From positions 1-46,487 of the forward strand of contig CAZCCY010000003.1 in the NCBI GenBank assembly GCA_964497545.1: DNA of 46,487 bases, read 5' to 3'. The translations under genes were made by a program, and so were the position numbers. The notes beneath the pieces are model-generated. The model saw only the letters and a list, made by a program, of their open reading frames with translations. It was not told where the DNA came from and made no database searches. Positions within the stretch are counted from its first letter, which is position 1. Every line of letters starts with the position of its first letter. Of the stretch, positions 741-46,487 are shown piece after piece. This DNA is from an uncultured Methanosarcinales archaeon. Its GTDB lineage: Archaea > Halobacteriota > Methanosarcinia > Methanosarcinales > CAZCCY01.

Positions 741-1508
741 TCAGGATTCTGCAATGGCCTTCTTAACTTCATTCAATATCTCGGTTCTCACCTCCTCTAC
801 CGGTCTTGACCCGTCTACGATTCTAACTGCCGAGGCTCGAAGAGCCGAGGCTGCCGGAGTGTAACTTCGGCTTCTAAAAGGCTGATACTTCGTATCAGGA
901 GACTCGGCTTGGCGATGAGCTTCATTTTTAGAAGGTTTGAAACTTCGTTTCTCCTGCTTTTTGTCCTGTTTCAGATGACCCAGCAGATTGAAAATGGCTC
1001 TTACCTCTGCCAGGTATTTCTCTCTCTCAAATTCATTGGGCGGCTCATTTCTATTTTTTATCCGGCGGACAGCTTCGCCAGGTGTTATATCCAGTATTAT
1101 TGTCAGGTCTGGCCTGGGCGCGATTTCCTCATTCTTTCTCTGAATTTCAAAGGGATCAAGTCCCAGGGCCCCCTGGTAGGCAATGTTAGAAAAATAGTAC
1201 CTGTCCATAATAACAATTTTACCGGCATCCAGGGCAGGCCTAATATTCTTTTTAACATCCTCCATCCTGTCCTTTAAAAACAATTCAAACTCTTCTTGTG
1301 GAGAGATGTTTTCCCGTCCTTTTAAGGCTATTTCCCGTATTTTATCCCCATATATGCTGTTGCCTGGCTCTTTCAGCCGGAGGACAGGGTAACCTTCCTT
1401 TTTAAGAGATTCTTCTAGCAGGACGGCCTGGGTTGTTTTGCCTGCTCCATCTATACCTTCAATAGCAACGAGAAATCCCTTAGACAGTTTGTTTGGGATA
1501 AGGATCAT
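741..1508 (-). CDS. tmk: Thymidylate kinase carrying a ~48-codon in-frame insertion near the C-terminus
   Basis: P-loop 'VAIEGIDGAGKTTQ', 'DRYYFS' and the conserved tail 'VRIVDGSRPVEEV'. At 255 aa it is longer than the usual ~200 aa because of the repeat element at 821-971. Confidence 0.9.
   Translation of the reverse strand: MILIPNKLSKGFLVAIEGIDGAGKTTQAVLLEESLKKEGYPVLRLKEPGNSIYGDKIREIALKGRENISPQEEFELFLKDRMEDVKKNIRPALDAGKIVIMDRYYFSNIAYQGALGLDPFEIQRKNEEIAPRPDLTIILDITPGEAVRRIKNRNEPPNEFEREKYLAEVRAIFNLLGHLKQDKKQEKRSFKPSKNEAHRQAESPDTKYQPFRSRSYTPAASALRASAVRIVDGSRPVEEVRTEILNEVKKAIAES
821..971. repeat. Multi-hairpin repeat element, copy A (in-frame inside tmk)
   Basis: Consecutive hairpins: GGCTC-GAA-GAGCC (834-846), GCCGGAGT-GTA-ACTTCGGC (853-871), CTGATAC-TTC-GTATCAG (882-898) and GAAAC-TTC-GTTTC (939-951). 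The 51-nt core 821-871 matches 37856-37906 at 40/51 positions. Confidence 0.65.
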
Positions 1509-1519
1509 AGAGCTAATCT

Positions 1520-1538
1520 GCCGATATGATATATCGGC
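1520..1538. other. Perfect 8-bp stem / 3-nt loop hairpin 12 nt upstream of the tmk start
   Basis: GCCGATAT-GAT-ATATCGGC read directly from the sequence. It lies between the SOR stop and the tmk start on the minus strand. Confidence 0.4.
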
Positions 1539-5667: not shown

Positions 5668-6558
5668 ATGAAACGGGAAAATGTCCTGATCGAGGCTCTG
5701 CCTTACATCCGGGAGTTTTACGATTCCATTATGGTGGTGAAAATTGGGGGGCGGGCTATGGTTGACCCCAGGATTCTGGAGCAGATTGTCCAGGATGTTG
5801 TTCTTCTGAGGTATGTGGGTGTCCACCCGGTTGTGGTGCATGGTGGGGGGCCGGAGATTACCGAGAAGATGGAGCGGATGGGGAAGGAGACCGAGTTTGT
5901 GGCTGGTTTGAGGGTGACCGACAAGGAGACGCTGGAGATTGCCAGGATGGTGCTGGTGGGGAATATTAATACCAGGATTGTCTCGCTCATCGGGAGGTAC
6001 GGGGGTAAGGGTGTGGGCCTTGTGGGGAGTGATGGGAATCTGATTCTGGCCAAGCGGCTGCCTCCCAGGCTTGTCCGGCATGGTGGTGTGGAGCGGATGG
6101 TGGACCTTGGCTTTGTGGGGGAGATTGAGATTGTTAACCCGGAGTTGTTGATGATCCTTGCAGGTAAGGGGTTTATACCGGTGGTCTCACCTATTGCGGT
6201 GGAGGTGGAAAGTGGAGAGCATCTGAATGTTAATGCTGACACGGTGGCCGGGGACCTGGCCGCCGCGCTGAAGGCTTTGAAGCTGATATCGCTCACAGAT
6301 GTCCCCGGGGTTCTGCGGGAGGAAGGGGATGCCAGCACCCGCATCTCTAGGCTGGAGCTTTCCGAGATTGAGGAGCTTGTCAGGGATGGTGTTATCCGGG
6401 GTGGCATGGTCCCCAAGGTGACAAGTGGCGCTGCTGCCTGCCGGGCAGGGGTGAAAGAGGTGCACATCATCGATGGGAGCAGACCCCACGCACTCCTCCT
6501 GGAGCTTTTCACAGACGAGGGCGTGGGAACCATGATATACCGGAGAGAGGACTACTAA
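5668..6558 (+). CDS. argB: Acetylglutamate kinase
   Basis: 'IMVVKIGG' and 'VVVHGGGPEI' amino-acid kinase signatures; 296 aa. Confidence 0.9.
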   Translation: MKRENVLIEALPYIREFYDSIMVVKIGGRAMVDPRILEQIVQDVVLLRYVGVHPVVVHGGGPEITEKMERMGKETEFVAGLRVTDKETLEIARMVLVGNINTRIVSLIGRYGGKGVGLVGSDGNLILAKRLPPRLVRHGGVERMVDLGFVGEIEIVNPELLMILAGKGFIPVVSPIAVEVESGEHLNVNADTVAGDLAAALKALKLISLTDVPGVLREEGDASTRISRLELSEIEELVRDGVIRGGMVPKVTSGAAACRAGVKEVHIIDGSRPHALLLELFTDEGVGTMIYRREDY

Positions 6559-10425: not shown

Positions 10426-11214
10426 ATGATAGCTGTCCTCAAGATTGGTGGAAGTGTGATTACAGATAAAACCTGTGCCGAGACACCCAGACTGGAGGTG
10501 ATGGAGCGGATTGCAGGGGAGCTCAGCGCCTGGGAGGGGGGCCTGGTGCTGGTTCACGGTGCTGGCTCCTATGGCCATCCCCAGGTGAAGGATAATGGGG
10601 GTATGGCTGTCATTGTAAGGGGGGATGAGACAGCCCGGGAGGCTGCTCTGCGGCATGCCAGGTTCATCGACATTGTTCATTCCTCGGTGGCAAAGTTGAA
10701 CGCTCTCTTTGTGGATATTCTCTGCCAGGCTGGCGTCCCTGCAGTTGGATTCCACCCCCTTGAAATCGCGCTGCAGGAGCGGGGCAGGCTGATTTCACTC
10801 GACACAGGGGTTGTGAGCCTTGCCCTTGAGCGGGGGTTTGTACCGGTGCTTCACGGGGATGTTGTGTTTGACAGGGCAATCGGGGTCTCAGTACTCTCAG
10901 GAGACCAGCTCACACCTTTCCTTGCCCGACAGCTGGGTGTGGACCTGGTAGGTGTTGGCACCAATGTGGACGGTATCCTGGACCCCCAGGGGAAAGTCGT
11001 CCCAGAGGTTAATCCTTCTAATTTCCAGGAGATTAAAAAGTGGCTTGGAGGGGGGAGCGGGATTGATGTTACCGGTGGGATGGCTGGCAAGGTGGAGGGG
11101 CTTCTCTCCCAGGGTGTCAGGGCAAGGGTGTTTAACGCCTCCCGGAAGGGTGTGATATCCAGTTTTCTCAGGGGAGAAAAGGTAGGAACACTGATAACAG
11201 GGGGGGTAGGCTAA
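10426..11214 (+). CDS. ipk: Isopentenyl phosphate kinase
   Basis: 'VLKIGGSVITDK' and 'VLVHGAGSYGHP' amino-acid-kinase fold signatures. The ATG at 10426 is preceded by GGAGGGTG; the ORF track offers a TTG at 10411. Confidence 0.85.
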   Translation: MIAVLKIGGSVITDKTCAETPRLEVMERIAGELSAWEGGLVLVHGAGSYGHPQVKDNGGMAVIVRGDETAREAALRHARFIDIVHSSVAKLNALFVDILCQAGVPAVGFHPLEIALQERGRLISLDTGVVSLALERGFVPVLHGDVVFDRAIGVSVLSGDQLTPFLARQLGVDLVGVGTNVDGILDPQGKVVPEVNPSNFQEIKKWLGGGSGIDVTGGMAGKVEGLLSQGVRARVFNASRKGVISSFLRGEKVGTLITGGVG

Positions 11215-16288: not shown

Positions 16289-16597
16289 ATGTATCTGCGA
16301 TACATCTTCTCATTATTGGCACCTGCCCCATTGATCTTTGCACAAGTTGCAGAGGCCCTGGTTCTGCAGGGTGGCCAGGGGACATTTAAAACCAGGCCAA
16401 GGGTCGCGGTGGCAGCATACCACACACCTGTCCAGGCGATGGAGGTCTCCACCTGCCTGACAAAAATGGGATACCAGCCGGGAATAGAGTACGCCCGCTC
16501 AGGCGTCTACCGGGCCATGCAGGACCATGTGCCCATCATCTACGGTGGCGTCTCAGGGAGAGGAGGATTAGGGCCAGGATTGTTAGGGGGGCTGTGA
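16289..16597 (+). CDS. Orphan ORF of uncertain reality
   Basis: Coding-like GC content but no recognisable motif. The last 60 nt are antisense to the C-terminus of the convergent DUF3344 gene. Confidence 0.2.
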   Translation: MYLRYIFSLLAPAPLIFAQVAEALVLQGGQGTFKTRPRVAVAAYHTPVQAMEVSTCLTKMGYQPGIEYARSGVYRAMQDHVPIIYGGVSGRGGLGPGLLGGL

Positions 16598-17432
16598 AAC
16601 CTGGTGTTTTTGAGGGAGAGGTGTGTTTCACTGTCAGGAAGGCGTTGCTGACCACCATGTAGTCTCCGTTGTCCTTGATTCGGATGATGTTTTCTCCTTT
16701 TTTCAGGTAGGGTTTAACGTCTCTTGTGTCGATTGCCAGGTCAGGATAGGGTTTGCCCTGGTAGACCTGGTTCCAGGTTTTTTTGTTGAAATAGAGGGTG
16801 TTTTTACCCTTGTTGCCGCCTGCCACCACGGTGGTGAGTGTGGCTTTTTCTGCCTTGTCAGGGATGTTGTTGAAGCGGATTTCGGTGGTTGTGTTTTTTA
16901 TGCCCTGGAAAGCGTAAATCATGTCTGCCCCCTCGGCGAGCCAGTACTCAGTGTCTCCCTGGTAGACCAGGAGGAGTCCCATCCCGTTTATGGCGAAGTT
17001 GCCCTGGCCTGTGTTTTTTACCATGGCTGTGCAGTCTTTTTTGGTTACAAGGCCTGTGACGTTGTAGGCGTAGGTGCCGCTGGGGTAGTTGTAGGGGTCT
17101 TCTCCTTTCTGGTCGGTGTATTTTCTCTCGGGTGTGAGCAGTTTTCCCTGGAAGGTTGTTTCCATGGATGGGTTTACTCCCTGGTCTCCCTGGTGGCTCC
17201 AGGTCCAGTAGAGGTAGAGTCTTGCAAGTTTTATTTCACCCTCTCTGGGGAGGGTGAATTTCACGGTGTAGCTATCGCCTGGTGCCAGCTCGCCGCTGTA
17301 GGTGCTGTTTCCTATGGTGAAAACAGGCTCGCCTTTCCCGTGCTGGTAGGTTTCGAGCCGGTCTCCGGTGTAGGATGCTAGGGCGGGGGGTGTCAGGATG
17401 AGTGCCAGTGCGAGTGCTGCTATGATTTTCAT
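16536..17432 (-). CDS. Secreted DUF3344-like protein (single B-type domain) with PGF-CTERM sorting signal
   Basis: Signal peptide 'MKIIAALALALILTPPALA'. Blocks 'GNSTYSGEL', 'IKLARLYLYWTWSH', 'YPSGTYAYNVTGLV' and 'EYWLAEGADM' are shared with the paralogues. C-terminal 'PGFTAPLTILALILLSLRRHRR'. Confidence 0.8.
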   Translation of the reverse strand: MKIIAALALALILTPPALASYTGDRLETYQHGKGEPVFTIGNSTYSGELAPGDSYTVKFTLPREGEIKLARLYLYWTWSHQGDQGVNPSMETTFQGKLLTPERKYTDQKGEDPYNYPSGTYAYNVTGLVTKKDCTAMVKNTGQGNFAINGMGLLLVYQGDTEYWLAEGADMIYAFQGIKNTTTEIRFNNIPDKAEKATLTTVVAGGNKGKNTLYFNKKTWNQVYQGKPYPDLAIDTRDVKPYLKKGENIIRIKDNGDYMVVSNAFLTVKHTSPSKTPGFTAPLTILALILLSLRRHRR

Positions 17433-17462
17433 CTTTTCTCTCTCTTTTTTTAGGAGGAAACC

Positions 17463-17480
17463 GGGGGGGAGACCCCCCCC
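17463..17480. other. G7-AGA-C8 homopolymer hairpin between two genes of the DUF3344 array
   Basis: GGGGGGG-AGA-CCCCCCCC read directly. It lies 3 nt after the stop of the 79-aa ORF and 30 nt before the start at 17432. Confidence 0.5.
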
Positions 17481-17483
17481 ATT

Positions 17484-17723
17484 TTATGGCTTTCTTTTGA
17501 TGGGTGATATTTTACCGGGTGTGATGTCTATGGTGGCTATTTTTGTCACCCCATGGGTTTTGTTGCTGATTAGGGTCACTGGCTCCTGGGCATGTTCGTT
17601 GGATTGTAGCTGTGGGAGTGTCATTGCCAGTGCTGCTACCAGGGCCAGTGCCAGGGCGATTGCCTTCCACCTGCGTGCCTCCATTTCGGCTTTGTTGAGA
17701 CTCTCTGTTTCAGTATTTGGCAT
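17484..17723 (-). CDS. Small signal-anchored protein (79 aa)
   Basis: One TM segment 'WKAIALALALVAALAMTL'. It overlaps the end of the 807-aa gene by 14 nt and is co-oriented within the array. No family was recognised. Confidence 0.35.
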   Translation of the reverse strand: MPNTETESLNKAEMEARRWKAIALALALVAALAMTLPQLQSNEHAQEPVTLISNKTHGVTKIATIDITPGKISPIKRKP

Positions 17724-20133
17724 AGATGTTGTACCTCCCTTTCTCCATTTCCAGTGCGAAGCTCCCGTCGCTGTGTGTCATTGTGATGTAGACCCGTTCT
17801 TCGTCTGTGTCCTGTTGTCCATTGTCGTTGGCATCGTAGTATCCCACGTTGGTCAGGTATTCCTGGGTTTTGTGGGTGAAGGGGTCTGTGAGGTTCAGTT
17901 TTAGCTCGATGCTTGTGGTTTTTATTTTTGTCCAGTCCCATTCTGAGGGGTCTGTGGTGGCGTTTATCCCGTAGACTTCTATGTTGGGTGCTTCCCGTTT
18001 CCCGGCGACCTGGTTGAATTTGTTGTAGACTGCGAAGAAGAGGGTGCCTGTTGCTGCTCCGTAGCGGCTGTCTGGTACTGTTTTTATGCCGAGCTCGCTC
18101 AGTTCTCCTGGTGTGATGTCTGTGACGCCCAGGTCTGGGAGTTTGGGCTTGGTTTTGAGTATGAGTATGGCGTTGCTTGGTACTATGTAGTCGCCTCTGT
18201 CCTGGATGGCGAGTTTGTTGTTACTGGGCTGGAGGTGGCTGCCCACCTCCCACCGGTCTACCGCGATGAGCTGTCTGGAGGAGGGTGCGTCTGTTGTTCC
18301 GAGGAGGTGGGTGTTAAATGTAACCTTGTTTTTGTCCTGGTCGCCCTTGTCTGCACCCGGGATGACTGTTATGAGTGTGGCGTTTTTCACGGTGTCGAGG
18401 TCCACAGGGCCGTTGAAGTCTATCTGGGTGGTTGCCTGTTCTGGTGGGATGTCTTTTGCGTAGAGCATGTCTGCGCCCTCTGCGAGCCAGTATTCTATCT
18501 CAGTGCTGGTGTCTTCCACCACCACAAGTAGTCCTACCCCGTACATGGCGAAGTTGCCCTCGCCTGTGTTGTTAATGGTTGTGGTGTAATTCCCTTTACC
18601 GGTTACCAGGTCTGTCACATTGTAGGCGTAGGTCCCGCTGGGATAGTCAAAGCTGCCAAAGCCTTTGCTGTCAGAGTATTTCTCCTCTGGCGTGATGGTT
18701 GTCCCGTTGAATTTCACCTCCATCTCTGGATCGGCGCCGGTGTCCTCTTTGTGGCTCCAGCTCCAGTAGAGGTAGAGTCTTGCCAGTTTGATGGTGGCGT
18801 CAGTTTTCAGTTCTGACTCCACGGTGTAGCTGTCACCGTTTGCCAGCTCCCCGCTGTAGGTGCTGTTTCCCAGGGTGAATATTATGTCCCCTTGTATTTT
18901 CTCGTGTCTGTAGATGGTGAGGGGTTTGTCTCCGAAATACCCGTTTTTTGTCACAACCTCGGCGTCTGTGCTGTTCGCATTGTTTGTCTCATTGGATTCC
19001 TCGACCTCTCCCTCTGGGTCTGCTCTGACCTCGAGGAGGTAGGTTCCAGTCCCGGGTGGGTTCCAGGAGAATTCTACCGTGGTGTTTGAGCCTGGGTTCA
19101 GGCCCGGGATTTCCACGGTGTCGGTGGGGTTGCTGTCCACGTAGAGTGTGGCGTTGAAGGCTGTGGCGCTTCTTGTGCCCTGGTTGGCAATTTCAGCTTT
19201 TATGGTGCTGGGGGTGTTGTTGTAGATGAAAGCTGGCAGGCTCAGGTTCCCCACGGTGAGGTCTGGTTTCCCTGGTGGTGCGCCTTTTGTCAGTAAAAGC
19301 ACTGCAATTACCGGGTGCAGGCTTGTCCCGCTCCCCCGGTCAAACACCAGGGTGTTACTGGACGAAGCGAGTTTGTCTGTGACATCCCAGCTGTCCAGGT
19401 CAAAGTAGCTTCCCTGGTCTGCTTTTGCAGCGTCTGTGGCGATGGTGTTCCCGTTAAGGGTGAGGGTGTCGTCATCGCCTTTTTTGCTTGCAATGTATGC
19501 TGTCCAGAGGGTGGCGGTGCTACTGGTGTCGATTGTGCCCTGGAAGGCTGTGGAGGCTGTGTCTTTCGGGGTCTTGTGGTTGGGGTTCTCGTTCCCCTCG
19601 TTTATCCAGTACTCTATCTCCTCCCCGGTGGGGTCATTGTAGGCTGCTACAAGCACCATGCCATAGACCCGGCCGTCGATGTCTCCGCTGGTTGTGGCGG
19701 TCGCGGTATTCGAGCCTTCTTTGATTTTGTCGGTTACATTGTAGGCTGTCCAGTAGACGCCATAGCCTGACACGTAGACGTTGGGGTTTGTGTCGGCTTG
19801 ACCTCCGAGGTTTAAGGTTCCGAGGTCGTTGCTGTTAAAGGTTGTCTGAAGTGTACCGGTGTACTCAGGGTTGCCGCCCCAGACCCCCACGTAGAGTCTT
19901 GCGTATTTGATGCTGGATGGCACGTTGTTGAAGGTCTGAGTGTAGGGAGAGGATTTCAGGCCGTGTCCGCCGTTGATGTAGATTCCGCCTTTTATGGTTT
20001 CGTGTCTTGTGGTGCTGAGGGGTATGCCGTCGAAATTGTAGATGGCGGATGCTGGTGTTATCAGGAGTATCGCGCAGGATGCGAGCCACGCCATCCCCAC
20101 TATTTTTCTTTTTTTTATTTTTTTGATTTTCAC
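17710..20133 (-). CDS. Large secreted protein: DUF3344 A-type domain, CARDB domain, DUF3344 B-type domain, unknown C-terminal domain
   Basis: Signal peptide '..AWLASCAILLITPASA'. A-domain blocks are 'IKYARLYVGVWGG', 'VYWTAYNVT', 'YGMVLVAAY', 'EYWINEGNE' and 'YFDLDSWDVT'. CARDB block is 'PDLTVGNL...IANQGT...EESNETNN'. B-domain blocks match 16536-17432. The GTG start overlaps the upstream stop (GTGA). Confidence 0.85.
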   Translation of the reverse strand: MKIKKIKKRKIVGMAWLASCAILLITPASAIYNFDGIPLSTTRHETIKGGIYINGGHGLKSSPYTQTFNNVPSSIKYARLYVGVWGGNPEYTGTLQTTFNSNDLGTLNLGGQADTNPNVYVSGYGVYWTAYNVTDKIKEGSNTATATTSGDIDGRVYGMVLVAAYNDPTGEEIEYWINEGNENPNHKTPKDTASTAFQGTIDTSSTATLWTAYIASKKGDDDTLTLNGNTIATDAAKADQGSYFDLDSWDVTDKLASSSNTLVFDRGSGTSLHPVIAVLLLTKGAPPGKPDLTVGNLSLPAFIYNNTPSTIKAEIANQGTRSATAFNATLYVDSNPTDTVEIPGLNPGSNTTVEFSWNPPGTGTYLLEVRADPEGEVEESNETNNANSTDAEVVTKNGYFGDKPLTIYRHEKIQGDIIFTLGNSTYSGELANGDSYTVESELKTDATIKLARLYLYWSWSHKEDTGADPEMEVKFNGTTITPEEKYSDSKGFGSFDYPSGTYAYNVTDLVTGKGNYTTTINNTGEGNFAMYGVGLLVVVEDTSTEIEYWLAEGADMLYAKDIPPEQATTQIDFNGPVDLDTVKNATLITVIPGADKGDQDKNKVTFNTHLLGTTDAPSSRQLIAVDRWEVGSHLQPSNNKLAIQDRGDYIVPSNAILILKTKPKLPDLGVTDITPGELSELGIKTVPDSRYGAATGTLFFAVYNKFNQVAGKREAPNIEVYGINATTDPSEWDWTKIKTTSIELKLNLTDPFTHKTQEYLTNVGYYDANDNGQQDTDEERVYITMTHSDGSFALEMEKGRYNIYAKY

Positions 20134-21884
20134 TGTTTCTCCCTTCTTGTTATTTTTCGTTTTTTCTGGATTATCAGGAAGGCTGAGAGTCCGACAAGCA
20201 TCAGGATGGCGGATGGAAGCTCGGGGACTGGTGCTGGACTTCCTGGGCTTGAGCCCAGTATCAGGAAGGCGTTGCTTGGCACCATGTAGTCGCCCATATC
20301 CAGGACTCCAAGCTTGTTACCGGCTGATTGCACATATGCTAAGACATCGCGGGTGTCCACCGCGGTTGCGGAGGAGTCCAGCACCCCGGTCCAGGCCTGG
20401 TTGTTGAATAAAATCTCGTTTTTATCCTGGTCGCCCTTGTTTGCACTTGGGACAACAGTAATCAGGGTTGCACTCACAAGGTTACCGGGAATCACGTAAC
20501 CATCGAAGTTGATGTAGGTTGTCTGGTCCGGGGCAGTACCATAGCTTGTTTTTGCATAAACTGTGTCCGCACCCTCGGCAATCCAGTATTCCTTCCATTC
20601 TCCATTGGGGTCCTCAAATACGACAAGTAACCCTACTCCATACATGGCGAAGTTGCCCTGACCTGTGTTTTCCACCACGGTTGTGTAGTCTTTTGTGGCT
20701 GTCACAAGGCTTGTGACATCATAAGCATAGGTCCCGCTGGGATAGTCATAGCTGCCGAAGCCTTTGCGGTCATAGTATGTCCTATCCGGGGTAAGGGCGT
20801 TCCCGTCAAATTTTACTTCCATTTGGGGCTGGGTGACGCCCTGGCTCCCCTGGTGGCTCCAGCTCCAGTAGAGGTAGAGTCGTGCCAGCTTAACCGTGGA
20901 GCCAGAGGGAACATCCACATGGGATGTCACGGTGTAGGTGTCACCATTTGACATCTCCCCGCTGTAGCTGCCTCCAACGGTGTAGTTGAGACTTCCTTTT
21001 ACACTGTCGTGTCTGTAGATGGCCAGCGGCCTGTCAGCGAAATACCCGTTTTTCTCTTTCTTGGTGATTGCAAGCACTGCAAGTACCGGGTGAAGATGGG
21101 AATCGCTCCCCCTGTCAAACACCAGCGTGTTACTGGACGAAGTGAGTTTGCCTGTGACATCCCAGCTGTCCAGGTCGAAGTAGCCTCCTTGGTCTGCGGC
21201 TGCAGCGTCTGTGGCAATGAGGTTCCCGTTGAGGGTGAGGGTGTCACCATCCCCGCTTCCTCCTGCTAGGTAGGATGTCCAGAGTGTGGCGTTTTCCACC
21301 CCGGTGAGGTTAACTGTGCCATTGAAATAGCTGTCTGCTGTGTCTTTTCCAGAATGGAGATGCTCGTTACCCTCGTTTATCCAGTATTCCACAAGCGGCT
21401 GGCTCTGGTCCTCGTAGACTGCTACAAGCACCATGCCATAGACCCGGCCGTCAATGTCTCCACTGGTGGTGGCAGTTGCTGTGTTCGAGCCTGTGTTAAC
21501 CATGCCGGTCACATCATAGGCTGCCCAATAGACGCCGAATGCTGAGACATATACATTGAGGTTGGTGTCGGCTTGACCTCCGAGGTTTAAGGTTCCCAGG
21601 TCCTGGCCATTAAAGGTTGTCTGGAGTGTACCGGTGTACTCAGGCTTGCCGCCCCAGACTCCCACGTAGAGTCTTGCATATCTGATGTTGGATGGAACAT
21701 CGTTGAAGGTCTGAGTGTAAGGTGGATATGCCAGACCGTGGCCACCACTGACGTAGATTCCGCCTGCAAGGGTTTCGTGTCGTATGTTTTTCAGTTCGAA
21801 TCCATCTACATTGTAGTTTGCCGATACTGGTATTGCCAGGAGAACGAGCACTCCCACCAGTCCTATCCACATACATGTTCTCAT
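20130..21884 (-). CDS. Secreted DUF3344 protein (A-type plus B-type domains) with a PEF/PGF-like C-terminal membrane anchor
   Basis: Signal peptide 'MRTCMWIGLVGVLVLLAIPVSA'. It shares the A and B blocks of the 807-aa paralogue. The tail is 'SPAPVPELPSAILMLVGLSAFLIIQKKRK'. GGAGG lies 7 nt upstream of the ATG. Confidence 0.85.
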   Translation of the reverse strand: MRTCMWIGLVGVLVLLAIPVSANYNVDGFELKNIRHETLAGGIYVSGGHGLAYPPYTQTFNDVPSNIRYARLYVGVWGGKPEYTGTLQTTFNGQDLGTLNLGGQADTNLNVYVSAFGVYWAAYDVTGMVNTGSNTATATTSGDIDGRVYGMVLVAVYEDQSQPLVEYWINEGNEHLHSGKDTADSYFNGTVNLTGVENATLWTSYLAGGSGDGDTLTLNGNLIATDAAAADQGGYFDLDSWDVTGKLTSSSNTLVFDRGSDSHLHPVLAVLAITKKEKNGYFADRPLAIYRHDSVKGSLNYTVGGSYSGEMSNGDTYTVTSHVDVPSGSTVKLARLYLYWSWSHQGSQGVTQPQMEVKFDGNALTPDRTYYDRKGFGSYDYPSGTYAYDVTSLVTATKDYTTVVENTGQGNFAMYGVGLLVVFEDPNGEWKEYWIAEGADTVYAKTSYGTAPDQTTYINFDGYVIPGNLVSATLITVVPSANKGDQDKNEILFNNQAWTGVLDSSATAVDTRDVLAYVQSAGNKLGVLDMGDYMVPSNAFLILGSSPGSPAPVPELPSAILMLVGLSAFLIIQKKRKITRREKQ

Positions 21885-21980
21885 ACTTTTCCTCCATATT
21901 ACTCCTATTTAGTAATACTAATTCTCGTGTAGATAGAATTTAAACTACATAAATGTTTCTTATAATCAGAAATTTTAAGT

Positions 21981-22006
21981 AAAAAAAACAAAAATTTAAT
22001 AAAAAA
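21981..22006 (-). terminator. Oligo-T tracts (T8, T6 on the coding strand) after the S-component gene
   Basis: Plus-strand A8 (21981-21988) and A6 (22001-22006) lie downstream of the stop at 22027-22029. AT-rich promoter-like DNA for the next gene follows. Confidence 0.35.
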
Positions 22007-22026
22007 TACTATTTTTTCTTTGTATT

Positions 22027-23097
22027 TCATATTGTTGCTTTTCGCATCTTCCGGGCGATATCATACCCAATGTAACCGCCAATAACACCCCCCAGAGCGG
22101 CAATGCCAACCTCGCTCCAGGCATACCAGGGAGCATAATACACCTTCCACACCGCAGGAGCAAAAAGAAAATAAAACGTCCAGTACGAAAACCCACCCCT
22201 GACAACACCATAAATAATAGACGTCCCCCGTTTATCCCCATAATCCCGGAACAACATCACAAGCACATCCACAATCACACCCTCACCCATGTACCACCCA
22301 AGCCAGAGAGTGACATTAGTCCCCCACACCACCATCGCCACAAGCTCCACCACAGTGAAAAGCAGGGTGGCTGTCCCAGGCTTCCTCACCAGCTGAAGCG
22401 CAACTATCAACACCACCGTGGTAGGAATCGTGAAGAGAAGCCCGCCCAGCGGGCCCAGCAGGTCATTAAAGGTCTGCCAGAACCACCGGAACACCACCCC
22501 AATAAGAGCGGCAAGAAGCGCCAGGGTAACCAGGTCAATGGTGGTAAACCACTCAAGCAACCTGAGCCTCCGGGACACCAGAAACACAACCAACACAATA
22601 AGAAAACTGGCAACCAGACTCCCGTAGGTCACCCAGGAAGGAGGCGGCACAACCTCCACCTCATGGATGTAACTCTCCCTCCTAACACCACCACCATCAG
22701 AATAACTCACATTCACCCGGAAGCTCACACTCTTCCTGAACTCCACAGACTCAGGCGGCTTAACCGAGAAAACAAAAGAACTAGAATCCCCTGGCCCCAG
22801 GACATCAATAACAGCCTTCACCCTTCCACCCTCCACCCAGGTCTCGGTCTCCTGGCCAGGAACCTCAACATCCATACCAGACGGGACATCCACACTCACC
22901 CTGACATCCCGCAAAGGCGTCTCACCATTGTTGGTCAGGGTGACCCTCGCCCTCTCATGCCAGGTGACACCTGCCACCAGCCTGTCAGATTCATAGATGT
23001 CCTTGTTCTTCACAGGTATGGTCATCCCCACCTCCAGCCCGCCCACTGCCAGACAGGCAAGGAGAATGATAACCAGGACAAAAAGGGAGCGCCTCAT
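22027..23097 (-). CDS. YkoE-like ECF transporter S component with an N-terminal signal peptide and beta-sandwich ectodomain
   Basis: The C-terminal ~190 aa are multi-TM: 'TTIDLVTLALLAALIGVVF...LVRKPGTATLLFTVVELV...', resembling the YkoE / ABC_cobalt-type S-component pattern. The N-terminal ~160 aa are 'VTLTNNGETPLRDVRVSVDVPSG...'. An ATGA overlap couples it to the upstream gene. Confidence 0.65.
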   Translation of the reverse strand: MRRSLFVLVIILLACLAVGGLEVGMTIPVKNKDIYESDRLVAGVTWHERARVTLTNNGETPLRDVRVSVDVPSGMDVEVPGQETETWVEGGRVKAVIDVLGPGDSSSFVFSVKPPESVEFRKSVSFRVNVSYSDGGGVRRESYIHEVEVVPPPSWVTYGSLVASFLIVLVVFLVSRRLRLLEWFTTIDLVTLALLAALIGVVFRWFWQTFNDLLGPLGGLLFTIPTTVVLIVALQLVRKPGTATLLFTVVELVAMVVWGTNVTLWLGWYMGEGVIVDVLVMLFRDYGDKRGTSIIYGVVRGGFSYWTFYFLFAPAVWKVYYAPWYAWSEVGIAALGGVIGGYIGYDIARKMRKATI

Positions 23098-24008
23098 CTC
23101 CTACGCCTCAACCGATAAAAGAAAAACACGACACTGGCCACCAGCACCACAATTACCGGCATCGGGACAGTAGCCCTCCCAGGGCCAACCTGCCCACCCA
23201 GCCTGAGATAATCCTCCCCCTGGTCATAGAGGTACTCCACCGCCAGAACCGCGTTGAAAGGATGAATATATGCCTCCTCACCCCGCTCAAACCTCAAGGT
23301 GTTATTCAAACCCACCAGGCCTGTCACATCCCACCTGTCCAGGTCAAAATACGCCCCGGACTTCGCCCTACCCACATCCTCTCCCAGAAGCTGGGAGTTA
23401 AAATAGAGACGATCCTCCTCACCCTTGTTCCCCGCTATTAAAACCGTCCAGAGAGTGGCATTTTTTATTTCAAGGGAGGTGGCATTGAAGACAACACTGG
23501 TACTATCCCTGGTCTGACGGGCAAGAGCCTGGTTCCCCTCTGCTATCCAGAACTCGGTCTGAGGCATGCTAGAATTCCGATAAACAGCAACAAGGACAAT
23601 ACCATAGGGGGCACCATTCAGATTATGATACCTCACCGAGACCCTGTTCACACCCTCTGATAGCATGCCGGTGACATTGTAGACATAACATGCAACACCC
23701 CAGGCTGCCAGATAATCAGGAGAACTCCGCCTCCCAAGAGTCCTGTTATTGATGCTCACCTCAAGCCAGTCATCCCTGTTGTAATTCCACATCGGCACAT
23801 AGAGCCTGGCATACTCTATCCTGGAGGGCAAGTCAAAATACTCCTCATAAGGGTTTTCATGGGTGTAACCATGGCCACCCCCCACAAACACGCCCCCATG
23901 CACCCTGCCCTCAGCCACAACATAGAGGGGTGTCCCCTCCCCCCTCCACTCACCCCCACTTGCAACCGGGACAAAAAGAAGAAGGACAAAAAGAAGGACA
24001 ACCCTCAT
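23094..24008 (-). CDS. DUF3344-like (A-type) extracytoplasmic protein with a C-terminal TM anchor, embedded in the ECF operon
   Basis: Signal peptide 'MRVVLLFVLLLFVPVASG'. Blocks are 'IEYARLYVPMWN', 'CYVYNVTG', 'YGIVLVAVY', 'EFWIAEGNQ' and 'YFDLDRWDVT'. The tail is 'VPMPVIVVLVASVVFFFYRLRRRR'. ATGA overlaps occur at both ends. Confidence 0.8.
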   Translation of the reverse strand: MRVVLLFVLLLFVPVASGGEWRGEGTPLYVVAEGRVHGGVFVGGGHGYTHENPYEEYFDLPSRIEYARLYVPMWNYNRDDWLEVSINNRTLGRRSSPDYLAAWGVACYVYNVTGMLSEGVNRVSVRYHNLNGAPYGIVLVAVYRNSSMPQTEFWIAEGNQALARQTRDSTSVVFNATSLEIKNATLWTVLIAGNKGEEDRLYFNSQLLGEDVGRAKSGAYFDLDRWDVTGLVGLNNTLRFERGEEAYIHPFNAVLAVEYLYDQGEDYLRLGGQVGPGRATVPMPVIVVLVASVVFFFYRLRRRR

Positions 24009-36670: not shown

Positions 36671-37246
36671 ATGCGTAGACACTTAGTGCAGAATGTAGGA
36701 TTAAATATTTTATCAGACCATATTTGGTTTACCATTTTTTGGACACTCCCTTATCTGGTGAAAGCAGAGCTTGAAGTTGACCAACAGGCAATTGAAAAGG
36801 AACGTGAAAAACTAGGACGATTCATTCTGGCAACCAACGACCCTGACCTCACAGGCGATGAAATCCTGTCACACTACAAAAGTCAGAGTAAGATAGAACG
36901 TGGATTCAGGTTTCTGAAAGACAAAAGTTTCCATGTTTCAGAGGTCTACCTGAAAAAAGAAAGCCGGATTGAAGCATTAACCATGATAATGGTCCTATGC
37001 CTCTTCCTTTATTCAATTGCTCAATGGATGTTAAGAAATAGACTTAAAGAGACAAACAAATTTGTCAGAAACCAGGTAAAGAAACCTATACAGAACCCCA
37101 CAATGAGATGGATATTTTTCCTGTTCAGAAGGATCACAGAAGTAACAATCCACAATGGTAAAACCGTTAAAAAGAAAGTGGCAAATATGACCGAGGAGTT
37201 ATGGGATATTCTGAGTCTGGCGAGGGCGAAAGCCCGAGCCAGTTGA
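36671..37246 (+). mobile_element. C-terminal fragment of an IS1634/IS4-like DDE transposase (relic)
   Basis: 'LGRFILATNDPDLTGDEILSHYKSQSKIERGFRFLKDKSF' is the typical C-terminal YK..ER..FR.LK block. The N-terminal ~2/3 of a transposase is missing, and no terminal inverted repeats were identified. Confidence 0.6.
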
Positions 37247-37262
37247 TACGAAGTATCAACCT
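37215..37262. repeat. Multi-hairpin repeat element, partial copy C (inverted relative to copy A)
   Basis: GGGC-GAAA-GCCC (37224-37235) and GTTGATAC-GAA-GTATCAAC (37242-37260). 'aagcccgagccagttgatacgaagtatcaacc' resembles the reverse complement of 879-912 in copy A. Confidence 0.45.
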
Positions 37263-37322
37263 GATGGGAAAAGAATGCAAAAAATATTATGTTTGAAAAA
37301 AGACATGCGGAAAGTCAGATAT

Positions 37323-38627
37323 ATGATTAAAGCGGTAATTCTTGCAGCAGGTCGGGGCACCCGGATGGGGCCTTTAACCCAGCACAGGCCAAAACCAATG
37401 CTACCCCTGGCAAACACACCCCTGCTTGGCCATATTGTCCAGGCTCTCAAAAAGGCAGGGCTGAGAGAGCTTCTAGTGGTCATCGGCTATAAGGCCGAGA
37501 AAATCCAGGAATATCTGGGCGATGGGGGTAGATTCGGGGTCAGGGTGGAATACCTCCACCAGCGGGAACAGCTTGGGACGGCCTATGCCATCGCCCAGGC
37601 AGAAAAATATGTGGACGGCCCATTTCTGGCACTCAACGGGGACGTCCTTCTGGGCGAAAAAGACCTTAAACTGATGTTAGGCCATTTAAAGGACCTGGAA
37701 GAAAAAACCGTAATCGGAGCAGTAGAGAAACAGGACCCAAGAAACTATGGTGTGATGGAGGTAAAAAACGGTAAAATAACAGGAATCCTGGAAAAACCAG
37801 AACCTTACAGTCTCGATAAACCCCTTGAAGGGCTTCCAGGTTTTGATAAATCCTTTTCTAAATGCCGAGACTCGAAGAGTCGAGGCTGCTGGAACGAAGT
37901 TCCAGCTGGATTTATGGTTAACACTGGTGTCTATCTTTTCACCCCCGGGGTCTTCCAGGCTATCCGGGACACTCCGAAGTCCAGCCGGGGCGAATATGAG
38001 ATTACAACTTCTCTTCAGATTTTAATCGACACTGGCAGTGAGGTGGTTTTCCAGAGGCTAGAGGGCTGGAGGGATCTTACCTATCCCTGGGACCTCCTGG
38101 ATGTGAATCAGCAGTTGTTGGCCGCGGACTCTTTTGGACATGAGGTTAAGGGTACCGTTGAACCTTACACTACTCTGAAAGGGAAAGTGGTGGTCGGTGA
38201 GGGGACTGTTATCCGGAGCGGGGCATATATCCTGGGTCCTGTTGTTATTGGCAGGAACTGTGATATTGGGCCTAATTGTTTCATTCGTCCTTATACTGCT
38301 ATTGGGGATGGTGTGCGGATCGGTAATGCGGTGGAGGTAAAGAATAGCATAATAATGGAGAACACGAAAATCGGTCATTTGAGCTATGTGGGAGACAGTG
38401 TTATTGCTGCGGATTGTAACTTTGGGGCTGGCACTAAAATCGCGAATTTGAGACACGATGGCAGGACTATCAGAGTAAAAATAAATAACAAAATTTTGGA
38501 TTCAAAACGGAGAAAGCTGGGGGCGATAATAGGGGATCATGTTCACACCGGTATTAACAGTATGATTAATGTGGGGGCTGTGCTTGAAAGTGGTAGCTGG
38601 CTTTTGCCAGGGGAGTTCTACAGATGA
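37323..38627 (+). CDS. Archaeal GlmU-like sugar-1-phosphate nucleotidyltransferase / left-handed beta-helix acyltransferase, with a 36-codon in-frame insertion
   Basis: 'AVILAAGRGTRMGPLT..PKPMLPL' nucleotidyltransferase motif, with hexapeptide repeats in the C-terminal third. An extra segment sits between 'GILEKPE' and 'FMVNTGVYLF'. Confidence 0.8.
   Translation: MIKAVILAAGRGTRMGPLTQHRPKPMLPLANTPLLGHIVQALKKAGLRELLVVIGYKAEKIQEYLGDGGRFGVRVEYLHQREQLGTAYAIAQAEKYVDGPFLALNGDVLLGEKDLKLMLGHLKDLEEKTVIGAVEKQDPRNYGVMEVKNGKITGILEKPEPYSLDKPLEGLPGFDKSFSKCRDSKSRGCWNEVPAGFMVNTGVYLFTPGVFQAIRDTPKSSRGEYEITTSLQILIDTGSEVVFQRLEGWRDLTYPWDLLDVNQQLLAADSFGHEVKGTVEPYTTLKGKVVVGEGTVIRSGAYILGPVVIGRNCDIGPNCFIRPYTAIGDGVRIGNAVEVKNSIIMENTKIGHLSYVGDSVIAADCNFGAGTKIANLRHDGRTIRVKINNKILDSKRRKLGAIIGDHVHTGINSMINVGAVLESGSWLLPGEFYR
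37803..37910. repeat. Multi-hairpin repeat element, copy B (in-frame inside the GlmU-like gene)
   Basis: GACTC-GAA-GAGTC (37869-37881) and GCTGGAAC-GAA-GTTCCAGC (37888-37906). The core 37856-37906 matches 821-871 at 40/51 positions with compensatory stem changes. Confidence 0.65.
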
Positions 38628-44612: not shown

Positions 44613-45572
44613 ATGAGAGTCTCGATTGTGATCCCCAACTGGAACGGAAAAAAATACCTGGAAGGATGCCTGGAATCCCTGGCATCTCAGAGCTTCCAGG
44701 ACTTCAAAGTGATAGTCGTGGACAACGCCTCCACCGACAACTCCATAGAACTCATAGAATCAAAATTCCCCTGGGTCAAAACCATTAAAAACACCCGGAA
44801 CCTCGGCTTCGCAGCAGCCATCAACCAGGGGATACGCACCTCAAACACAGAATACATCGCCACCCTAAACAACGACACCCAATGCACCAGAGAGTGGCTC
44901 GCCTCCCTCCTGGAAGCCCTGGACTCAGAGCCAGACGCAGGCATGGCCGCCTCCCGGATGCTCAGATTCAACGGGACGATAGACTCAACCGGCATCGAGG
45001 TCTATCGCAGTGGCGGCGCATATGACCGGGGTGCAGGCAAAAAAAACGGGGAGTTCCCAAGAGAAGTCTTCGGAGCATGTGCAGGCGCAGCCCTCTACCG
45101 CAGAAAAATGCTAGAAGACATCGGCCTTTTCGACGAGAGCTACTTCGCATACCTCGAGGATGTAGACCTGGCCTTCCGGGCAAGACTCCGGGGCTGGAAA
45201 GCCATCTACGTCCCCAATGCTGTGGTCTACCACATCCACTCAGCCACCGCCAAAACCGGCTACTTCAAACTCTACCACATACTCAGAAACAAACTCTGGA
45301 ACACCTGGAAATACTACCCCCCAAGACTAATCCTAGCCTCAATGATCATTACAACCATCCAGTACCTCAACTACCTCACAAGGCTCATACTAAAAAAGGG
45401 TAGCCCCCACCCGGTCGAGAAATACCAGCTACTGGACATCCTGAAAGCAGTGCCACCCTCCCACCTCCACGCCCTCATCGCCCTGCCCAGAATCCTGAGA
45501 GAACGCAAAAAAATCCAGAAACAAAAAACAGCCAGCATCGAAGACTGGCTACTCCCCGGCTACAAACTCTAA
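44613..45572 (+). CDS. Family 2 glycosyltransferase
   Basis: 'VSIVIPNWNGKKYLEGCLESLASQSFQDFKVIVVDNASTDNS', 'NNDT' and 'FAYLEDVDL' (DxD-type). The ATG at 44613 removes an implausible 45-aa leader. Confidence 0.85.
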   Translation: MRVSIVIPNWNGKKYLEGCLESLASQSFQDFKVIVVDNASTDNSIELIESKFPWVKTIKNTRNLGFAAAINQGIRTSNTEYIATLNNDTQCTREWLASLLEALDSEPDAGMAASRMLRFNGTIDSTGIEVYRSGGAYDRGAGKKNGEFPREVFGACAGAALYRRKMLEDIGLFDESYFAYLEDVDLAFRARLRGWKAIYVPNAVVYHIHSATAKTGYFKLYHILRNKLWNTWKYYPPRLILASMIITTIQYLNYLTRLILKKGSPHPVEKYQLLDILKAVPPSHLHALIALPRILRERKKIQKQKTASIEDWLLPGYKL

Positions 45573-45789: not shown

Positions 45790-46487
45790 AAAAATCCCAG
45801 GATTGTGAACTATGCTGAAAACGGAGGAATGGTTAATGATAAGAGATTTGCATGCACAGGGTTTGAGCATCAGTGCGATATCAGAAAAAACAGGGTATGA
45901 CAGAAAGACCGTACGGAAATATTTGAATTTAACATCCATACCAGAACCAAAGAAACAGGCTAAAAAAGGGAGCAAGCTCGATAATTATAAGGATTACATT
46001 ATTGAGAAGCTTCATGAAGGACCTTTCACAGCAGCCCGTTTATTTCGTGAAATACAGGAAATGGGCTTTACAGGGAAATACACAATAGTCAAGGATTTCG
46101 TCAGAGAAGTTAGACCAGAGCAGGGAGTTGAGGCTGTTTACAGATATGAGACAAAACCAGGCAGGTTGACTGGTCAGAAATCGGTAAAGTAGAGATAGAC
46201 GGCAAAACACTGAAACTATACTGCTTCAACATGATACTCGGTTATTCGAGGATGAGGTATATCGAATTCACACTGAGCATTGATGTATATACCTTGATAC
46301 AATGCCATCTGAACGCATTTCATTACTTTGGCGGATATCCGAAGGAAATACTCTATGATAATATGAAGCAAATAGTGATAAAGCGAGCAATAAAATCCTC
46401 AGACTCGGAATGGAACACTAAGTTTGAGGACTTCTTCAACTTTTCGTCGCAAGGAGTCCCCTTCCGAAAGGGAGGGGAGGAATTGCG
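45746..46487 (+). mobile_element. IS21-family insertion sequence, left end and istA (runs off the window)
   Basis: The TG-initiated end is 'tgtgtcaatggcggtcaaaaatt' with repeated GTCAA/TTGAC motifs. A 10-bp inverted repeat ACAATCCTGG/CCAGGATTGT lies before the istA ATG. IstA-like protein follows. Confidence 0.7.
45812..46487 (+). pseudogene. istA: IS21 IstA transposase, frameshifted near 46160-46165
   Basis: The HTH 'LSISAISEKTGYDRKTVRKYL' is in frame 2 and ends 'YETKPGRLTGQKSVK*'. The expected continuation 'QVDWSEIGKVEIDGKTLKLYCFNMILGYSRM...EILYDNMK' is in frame 1 from 46162. Confidence 0.7.

Follow-up and report, generated by a model that had tools for sequence, protein, structure and literature searches.

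Why should the gene of an essential enzyme contain an additional block of hairpin-rich DNA that keeps its reading frame open, and why should part of that block recur inside an unrelated gene read from the opposite strand? This question is raised by the thymidylate kinase gene (tmk) of an uncultured Methanosarcinales archaeon, located on contig CAZCCY010000003.1 (assembly GCA_964497545.1), whose whole analysed stretch of 46,487 nucleotides is referred to here as the window. An initial annotation had proposed that the block is a mobile or structured palindromic element that tolerates translation. In the current work, the repeated mobile unit is identified, by comparison of its copies, as a two-hairpin module of 44-45 nt, which has entered three sequences without relation to one another, namely tmk, the gene of a nucleotidyltransferase and that of an IS1634 transposase which is dead. 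The explanation that we favour, and which we consider probable, is that these modules belong to a family of non-autonomous mobile DNA elements which is specific to the lineage and whose members are very small (44-45 nt) and consist of two adjacent hairpins, of a kind resembling repetitive extragenic palindromic (REP) sequences or palindrome-associated transposable elements (PATEs).

A lineage-specific insertion in tmk

The tmk gene is located at 741-1508 on the minus strand and encodes a protein of 255 aa (Pfam PF02223 Thymidylate_kin, E 5.6e-47), to which the thymidylate kinases of the Protein Data Bank (PDB) align over residues 13-175. An extra block, found in none of the 13 aligned homologues, separates the last helix (...VRAIFNLLGHLKQ) from VRIVDG, the last strand, which is conserved. 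The presence of such an in-frame segment is thus in agreement with the initial annotation, yet its size is ~46 codons (approximately residues 182-227, positions ~827-964) rather than ~48, because the spacing from 'IF' to 'V-x-I-I-D-G' is 54 residues in tmk as compared to 8-9 residues in the homologues. The limits of the insertion can be placed to within a few bases on the 964 side. Among the best 120 matches in a collection of 5.8 billion proteins, the block is present only in the identical protein (encoded on two contigs of the Joint Genome Institute, JGI) and is missing from the other 119, the next-best match being 64% identical and covering the kinase body only. In the AlphaFold model, the insertion falls between helix 163-189 and strand 227-232 and forms a low-confidence loop (predicted local distance difference test, pLDDT, of 43-57 over approximately residues 181-226), with values above 90 for the core.

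All four hairpins originally named were found in the region 821-971, these being GGCTC-GAA-GAGCC (834-846), GCCGGAGT-GTA-ACTTCGGC (853-871, with one G-T pair), CTGATAC-TTC-GTATCAG (882-898) and GAAAC-TTC-GTTTC (939-951). The first of these is larger than described, since it extends to GCC-GA-GGCTC-GAA-GAGCC-GA-GGC and thereby forms a stem of 10 positions in which a tandem G.A/A.G is conserved. The stretch of ~144 nt that had been regarded as a single unit is instead made up of three clustered modules, which differ in orientation and of which one is complete while the other two have decayed. The complete module, named tmkA (827-871, plus strand; covariance-model match of 68.5 bits), consists of CT, hairpin 1 (829-851), T and hairpin 2 (853-871). 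Directly 5' to it is a TTCTAA hexamer (821-826, plus strand) that corresponds to host codons I230-R229-V228, at which the homologues keep V-x-I-[IV]-D-G. The second module, tmkB (881-925, minus strand; 17-21 bits, E 0.04-0.16), has a decayed hairpin 1 and an intact hairpin 2 (881-899, being CTGATAC-GAA-GTATCAG on the minus strand), and is arranged tail-to-tail with tmkA, in the opposite orientation and across a 9-nt spacer (872-880). The third piece, tmkC (926-964, minus strand), was recognized by hairpin and sequence comparison as a one-hairpin remnant (GAAAC-GAA-GTTTC, 939-951), and ends in a TTCTAA hexamer (928-933, minus strand) that is located just 5' to tmkB; its GAA-loop hairpin differs by one compensated pair from hairpin 2 of the nucleotidyltransferase copy described below.

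Recurrence of the module in a nucleotidyltransferase gene

As previously observed, the 51-nt core at 821-871 recurs at 37856-37906 on the same strand, while the two host genes are located on opposite strands. The second host gene (37323-38627, plus strand) specifies a bifunctional sugar-1-phosphate nucleotidyltransferase/acetyltransferase of 434 aa (ST0452/GlmU-like; Pfam NTP_transferase and Hexapep), which matches PDB entries 5z09 and 2ggo with E ~1e-75, in two pieces. The JGI gene call is likewise of 434 aa and the true start is the ATG at 37323 (MIKAVILAAG...), the longer open reading frame (ORF) at 37275-38627 having a false upstream start within an IS1634 remnant. This gene contains an in-frame insertion of 32 codons (LDKPLEGLPGFDKSFSKCRDSKSRGCWNEVPA, ~37812-37907, plus strand), which is absent from 12 homologues and from structures 2ggo and 5z09, and of which the repeated core represents the 3' half. 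In the predicted structure, residues 161-195 have pLDDT values below 50 while those of the flanks exceed 90. The in-frame insertions in both enzymes are therefore predicted, from these models, to add disordered surface loops between well-folded elements without breaking the protein.

The module within this insertion, named NTP (37862-37906, plus strand; 68.3 bits), is complete and consists of AT, hairpin 1 (37864-37886), T and hairpin 2 (37888-37906), with TTCTAA directly 5' of it (37856-37861). It shares with the tmk copy a stretch of 34 nt that is 91% identical. The two cores differ at 11 positions (827, 835, 845, 855, 859, 860, 862, 864, 865, 867 and 869, in tmk coordinates), nine of which are located in stems, with four pairs changed on both sides and a further pair going from G-T to G-C, exactly as had been reported. 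Each of the two host genes reads the module from a different strand. The resulting peptides are therefore not related to each other (PAASALRASA versus CRDSKSRGC), and conservation is at the level of the nucleic acid.

The NTP module is in addition enclosed by an 8-bp outer inverted repeat that can fold (ATAAATCC, 37846-37853, and GGATTTAT, 37908-37915; plus strand), the right arm of which corresponds to host codons G-F-M. The tmkB module is likewise enclosed by an inverted repeat (CTTCTAAAA, 872-880, and TTTTAGAAG, 924-932). These enclosing repeats of 8-9 bp have the same geometry and differ in sequence.

A third copy in an IS1634 remnant

A third copy is found upstream of the nucleotidyltransferase gene, in a 5'-truncated insertion sequence (IS) of the IS1634 family (36671-37320, plus strand; Pfam DDE_Tnp_1), which comprises the C-terminal part of the transposase gene (its last ~160 codons) and the right end of the IS (...TGCGGAAAGTCAG), and whose homologues, named IS1634 family, are from ANME-2 and Methanosarcinaceae. 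Alignment with related IS copies reveals a complete module, named IS, as an out-of-frame insertion of 44 nt (CTGGCGAGGGCGAAAGCCCGAGCCAGTTGATACGAAGTATCAAC, 37217-37260, plus strand), consisting of CT, hairpin 1 (37219-37240, with a GAAA loop), A and hairpin 2 (37242-37260). Its placement is ambiguous by 3 nt (CTG), and TTCTGA is present at 37209-37214. Exactly these 44 nt are absent from three related IS copies compared at the DNA level (L121, L122 and L130), and the 11 complete related transposases that were fetched all end in ...WDIL[SGD][LM][ML]G..(C)[EK]KYY[VL] without the module, most of them in ...ELWDIL[SG]LMGKECEKYYV. The module shifts the transposase frame and creates a stop codon. Judged from these alignments, this copy is a third independent insertion, with boundaries that are exact to the base (the CTG ambiguity aside), into a gene that was already dead.

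The tmkB hairpin TGATACGAAGTATCA in the tmk insertion is identical to positions 37244-37258 at the 3' end of the transposase ORF, which could suggest that the module is a classical miniature inverted-repeat transposable element (MITE) with its origin in the neighbouring IS1634, whose DDE transposase would move it. This stretch is, however, itself part of the insertion, and is lacking in the three related IS copies and the 11 complete transposases; moreover, the module has neither terminal inverted repeats nor a consistent target duplication, nor does it resemble the end of the IS (...TGCGGAAAGTGAG). A MITE origin, being refuted by the uninterrupted relatives, is therefore scarcely credible. 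The same relatives led to the rejection, for the IS copy, of the notion that hairpin 2 is an inverted copy of adjacent host sequence, as they contain no such sequence.

The IS copy also bears on a reading at the protein level, according to which the extra segments are selected linkers or disordered regions whose similarity in DNA sequence is incidental. Both in-frame insertions are indeed open, are placed in loops and are kept in two samples. Nonetheless, the two genes translate the shared DNA from opposite strands, giving peptides without relation, the third copy is out of frame in a dead gene, and the substitutions track base pairing and not codons, which together make this reading highly unlikely.

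Architecture and conservation of the module

The three complete copies have a common design, being [C/A]T, hairpin 1, a single base and hairpin 2. In hairpin 1, 3 bp at the foot are followed by a tandem G.A/A.G, which reads C-GA-G on either strand, and then by 4-5 bp that carry a loop of the sequence GAA or GAAA. The stem of hairpin 2 has 8 bp and is capped by a GNA triloop, the closing pair being C-G or T-A. The conserved unpaired bases, i.e. the GNA/GAAA loops and the G.A/A.G flanked by C and G, occur on one strand of the element only. The module has no terminal inverted repeats, its ends not being inverted copies of each other; the distance from the 5' junction to hairpin 1 is 2 nt (7 nt to the inner stem) and that from hairpin 2 to the 3' junction is 0-3 nt.

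A covariance model constructed from tmkA and NTP only retrieves the IS copy with 34.5 bits (E 7.5e-5), and in a scan of the 46-kb window with this model nothing else rose above noise, apart from the weak matches at tmkB and at 1497-1538. The core pattern of 26 nt matches twice in the window and never in 100 shuffles. Short perfect hairpins are overall not in excess (52, as compared to 54 +/- 6 in shuffles), whereas the perfect hairpins with a GAA/TTC triloop, six in number where 1.7 +/- 1.1 are expected, all fall in the three loci. When all 46-nt windows of the sequence are ranked by stability, corrected for GC content, the modules are placed in the top seven. When five modules are aligned, in an alignment that was fitted to the structure, 96% of the cells are paired and 11 of the 16 pairs have changed on both sides, values that none of 500 shuffles reaches; in controls with slid partners, pairing falls to 19-39%. 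The four double changes were already seen in the tmkA-NTP comparison, which is ungapped and was not fitted. The module has thus diverged between copies while both stems stay paired. L001, L002 and L129 are independent assemblies derived from two samples, and all three contain the sequences in identical form, so that the modules are not an assembly artefact. The third independent insertion and the strong covariation (0 of 500 shuffles) together uphold the proposal of a structured palindromic element that tolerates translation.

A different account of the paired changes is a local origin without mobility, in which template switching or fold-back synthesis, at replication or in repair, built the hairpins in place and ectopic gene conversion made the loci similar. 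Template-switch correction of quasi-palindromes yields two-sided, 'compensated' changes without selection, and could account for part of those seen here; furthermore, the NTP module and tmkB are enclosed by inverted repeats, and at the NTP module, where one arm is host coding sequence, this looks like a local inverted duplication. Against this, the three loci share the ordered two-hairpin design, the unpaired bases and also the linker, the 34-nt similarity links tmk with the nucleotidyltransferase gene, and the module in the IS forms a clean block of 44 nt in which the flanks are not repeated in inverted orientation. Descent of the copies from one source, with later dispersal, is a far simpler explanation, and we consider a purely local origin unlikely.

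A function at the RNA level was also considered, as the module might be a binding site (for example for L7Ae), a signal for stability or translation pausing, or a bulge-helix-bulge intron that is spliced out. Tandem G.A pairs and GNRA and GNA loops are also classic RNA motifs, hairpin 2 of tmkA contains one G-T pair, and a 44-nt block, not being a multiple of three, would be harmless if spliced out. However, no bulge-helix-bulge motif (with flanking helices of at least 3 bp) is present at the three insertions, and relaxed matches are fewer than in random windows; Rfam 15 gives no match at gathering score in the window, and nothing relevant at E values up to 10 in the three regions; and the 3-nt bulge of a kink-turn is lacking. 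Furthermore, the module is antisense to the tmk mRNA and sense in the other two genes, so that the conserved loops and G.A pairs become U/C mismatches in the tmk transcript, and because the conserved unpaired bases are turned into pyrimidine mismatches there, a shared function in mRNA is improbable. An RNA-level element is therefore considered decidedly unlikely.

The second weak match of the model (1497-1538, plus strand; 21.5-22.3 bits, E 0.02-0.04) is located just upstream of the tmk start codon and represents a possible partial or decayed module. It includes a hairpin at 1520-1538 (GCCGATAT-GAT-ATATCGGC) that resembles hairpin 2 of the module and has the same outer four pairs as tmkA. The spacer upstream of tmk (1520-1590) contains, besides this hairpin, a second one (ATTTCC-ATGCTAC-GGAAAT). 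The GCCGATAT-GAT-ATATCGGC hairpin may be a decayed copy of the module, or may be the terminator of the upstream desulfoferrodoxin gene.

Beyond the window, a scan of metagenomes with a 20-base pattern returned one chance match, in a high-GC bacterium, from a collection that evidently does not include the JGI samples containing this organism. A scan of a genome collection with a loose 17-base pattern returned at least 117 unrelated single matches, none of which has the flanking architecture, without reaching the genome of the organism itself. A protein search with concatenated six-frame translations of the module found only tmk and missed the known nucleotidyltransferase copy, and hence had no power. 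Matches in viral contigs were rejected as unrelated, as they comprise hairpin 1 or the TGATAC hairpin only, as forced by the pattern, with no second hairpin. Two such contigs (L123, at 10571-10598, and L124, at 6051-6071) hold GCCGAG-CCTC-GAA-GAGG-CGAGGC, a hairpin of tandem-GA shape in which the two positions left free by the pattern are complementary. This likeness is probably due to chance, and L124, which contains a glutamine riboswitch (Rfam), is probably a cyanophage contig.

Insertion sites

In each of the four modules with a definable 5' end, the hexamer TTCTRA is located 0-2 nt 5' to the module (in the orientation of the element), while its background frequency in the window is 5.2e-4 per position. 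The junctions, indicated here by a slash, are TTCTAA/CT-GCCGAG for tmkA, TTCTAA/AT-GCCGAG for the nucleotidyltransferase copy, TTCTGAgt/CT-GGCGAG for the IS copy and TTCTAAaa/AT-GAAG... for tmkB. In two cases the hexamer is proven to be host sequence, as it specifies codons V-R-I at tmkA and is present in the uninterrupted relatives of the IS copy. At the nucleotidyltransferase copy and upstream of tmkB it is situated in extra inserted DNA, and these two pieces share ~15 nt (AAAYCCTTnnCTAAA), which could explain why modules pile up side by side. A consistent target duplication is not found, the most that is seen at the IS copy being a CTG repeat of 3 nt, itself ambiguous; TTCTAA is present on either side of tmkA, at a distance of 51 nt, and either a 6-nt duplication or a second target site is possible there.

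A proposed mode of movement

In the explanation that we favour, the element would move as single-stranded DNA, its hairpins being recognized by an enzyme encoded elsewhere in the genome. The likeliest candidate would be an HUH/Y1 transposase similar to those of IS200/IS605 or to the RAYTs; such an enzyme would insert the element 3' of a short target without duplicating it, and TTCTRA would act as the target rule. Classic examples of motifs that are unusually stable in single-stranded DNA are C-GNA-G triloops and pyrimidine-GA-purine tandem mismatches, and for this reason they point to a single-stranded DNA stage. The module may then represent both end hairpins, fused together, of a transposon of this type, as in the 'terminal-only' PATEs of Haloquadratum. 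Insertions would be selfish or neutral and blind to the reading frame, essential genes keeping only those copies or clusters that are a multiple of three, are free of stops in the host frame and lie in a surface loop. Such filtering of blind insertions by selection would be the reason that tmk and the nucleotidyltransferase gene contain disordered in-frame loops, and that the out-of-frame copy resides in a dead transposase gene. The clustering of three modules in tmk may result from modules or partner pieces that carry or adjoin a new TTCTAA site.

Several points weigh against this explanation. The family is represented by three complete and two to three decayed modules, within ~56 kb of sequence from the organism, and neither the window nor the adjoining 9 kb contains a Y1 transposase of the proposed kind. 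An empty-site polymorphism was not seen, 58 kb of sequence from relatives bearing related IS1634 copies contain no copy of the module, and a BLAST search of plasmid and phage collections gave no match to the whole tmk insertion, so the family may be very narrow. As regards anatomy, the hairpins are essentially flush with the ends of the element, whereas those of known IS200/IS605 ends are more distant, especially on the left, and hairpins 1 and 2 are alike only in their loops. The TTCTRA rule was spotted post hoc from four cases, and the compensated stem changes could stem in part from template-switch correction of palindromes and not from selection.

If true, the proposed family would be close to the smallest unit still able to move, consisting of two hairpins and nothing else, and its C-GNA-G triloops, C-GA-G tandem mismatches and TTCTRA rule would amount to concrete predictions for an enzyme specific for single-stranded DNA. 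If the family is abundant, it would offer a natural example of mobile DNA that makes new peptide segments in essential archaeal proteins, cases of this kind having been documented mainly for Rickettsia. Insertions of this type lengthen proteins, split profile matches in two (as for both enzymes here) and can mislead gene calling. A more far-reaching version holds that the module is the first archaeal counterpart of both REP-type elements and the Rickettsia palindromic elements (RPEs), i.e. a 44-45-nt two-hairpin single-strand transposon that inserts 3' of a TTCTRA target by means of a candidate trans-acting enzyme, is abundant in one lineage and repeatedly writes disordered loops into essential enzymes. 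This version is put forward tentatively, and we regard it as rather doubtful.

Other features of the window

In all assemblies examined, contigs end at the IS1634 remnant and at the ORF at 45812-46192, and because contigs terminate at both of these repeats, both are probably present in multiple copies in the genome. The latter ORF specifies 126 aa with a helix-turn-helix N-terminus (MLKTEEWLMIRDLHAQGLSISAISEKTGYDRKTVRKYL...) and looks like the start of an istA gene of the IS21 type. Five adjacent minus-strand genes at 16536-24008 include four DUF3344 paralogues, one of which also has a CARDB domain, and one gene with an NPCBM-associated domain; the DUF3344 paralogues are linked by long direct DNA repeats of 72-84% identity and probably constitute a surface-protein family. 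The most stable local hairpin of the window (44656-44701, z -5.6; CCTGGAAG...CTTCCAGG, with inner stem GATGCC...GGCATC) is located in the 5' part of a GT2 glycosyltransferase gene and has no sequence relation to the modules. A short plus-strand ORF at 190-429 (...GEVKRWDAELDRFGRDRHDKRRNPSFQIWLYLHETEPRWGILSNGHKWRLY...) is apparently a truncated fragment, which is presumed to resemble the nuclease region at the N-terminus of type IIG restriction proteins or BREX methyltransferases.

Comparison with known systems

The initial annotation was aware of no archaeal counterpart, yet small palindromic mobile elements of archaea, such as PATEs, SMRs and MITEs, are already known. The PATEs of Haloquadratum walsbyi are derived from IS200/IS605, have no inverted terminal repeats, contain near-terminal palindromes, cause no target duplication and follow a targeting sequence of 4-6 bp, with 52-bp 'terminal-only' PATEs appearing to be mobilized; the SMRs of Haloquadratum are likewise small palindromic mobile elements (PMC3119063). 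Like the module, PATEs are archaeal, are too short to encode anything, lack terminal inverted repeats and have palindromes at both ends; their copies too are divergent and are often situated inside other mobile elements (here an IS). The absence of target duplication and the short fixed sequence directly 5' of PATEs may likewise have a parallel in the module, as judged from the four TTCTRA cases. Unlike PATEs, the module is 44-45 nt long, its hairpins are flush with the ends and its two hairpins are alike only in their loops; it also fails to show the IS200/IS605 trait of a longer 5' stretch with guide bases before the first palindrome. Moreover, two of the three module insertions are in frame in housekeeping genes, a habit that has not been described for PATEs. 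What stands of the original claim is this habit, as the literature searched contains no report of archaeal small palindromic elements colonizing essential or housekeeping genes in frame. The comparison with PATEs is by anatomy, there being no sequence similarity to compare.

REP sequences and REPINs, which are associated with RAYT transposases, resemble the module in being imperfect palindromes of 20-40 nt that are read on one strand, with a presumed single-strand mechanism, and the tail-to-tail arrangement of tmkA and tmkB, 9 nt apart, is like the inverted pair of a REPIN or BIME. In contrast to REP/REPIN, no module has a GTAG/CGTC tag or its complement at its foot, and all three complete copies are intragenic and not extragenic. 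REPs do occur occasionally inside bacterial genes (PMC3733652), whereas REPINs are reported as not detected in archaea (bioRxiv 10.1101/2021.07.10.451892).

A further analogy, and in this case an analogy only, is provided by elements that are organellar, eukaryotic and without sequence relation to the module. The double-hairpin elements and GC clusters of fungal mitochondria are very small mobile units of two hairpins that can sit in coding regions.

RPEs are palindromic repeats inserted in frame in unrelated housekeeping genes, where the added peptide occupies fold-compatible positions (PMC10969869). The analogy drawn by the initial annotation is apt as far as the consequence is concerned, since both RPEs and the module are inserted in frame in unrelated housekeeping genes and add peptide segments, and is not apt as regards anatomy. 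RPEs are ~100-150 bp in length with a conserved peptide, while the module is about a third of that size and is read on either strand; one module copy, that in the IS, is out of frame, unlike the habit of RPEs; and the host domain, the sequence and the probable mechanism differ. Given its size, its lack of terminal inverted repeats and of a consistent target duplication, and its apparently fixed 5' sequence, REP elements and 'terminal-only' PATEs fit the module better than do RPEs.

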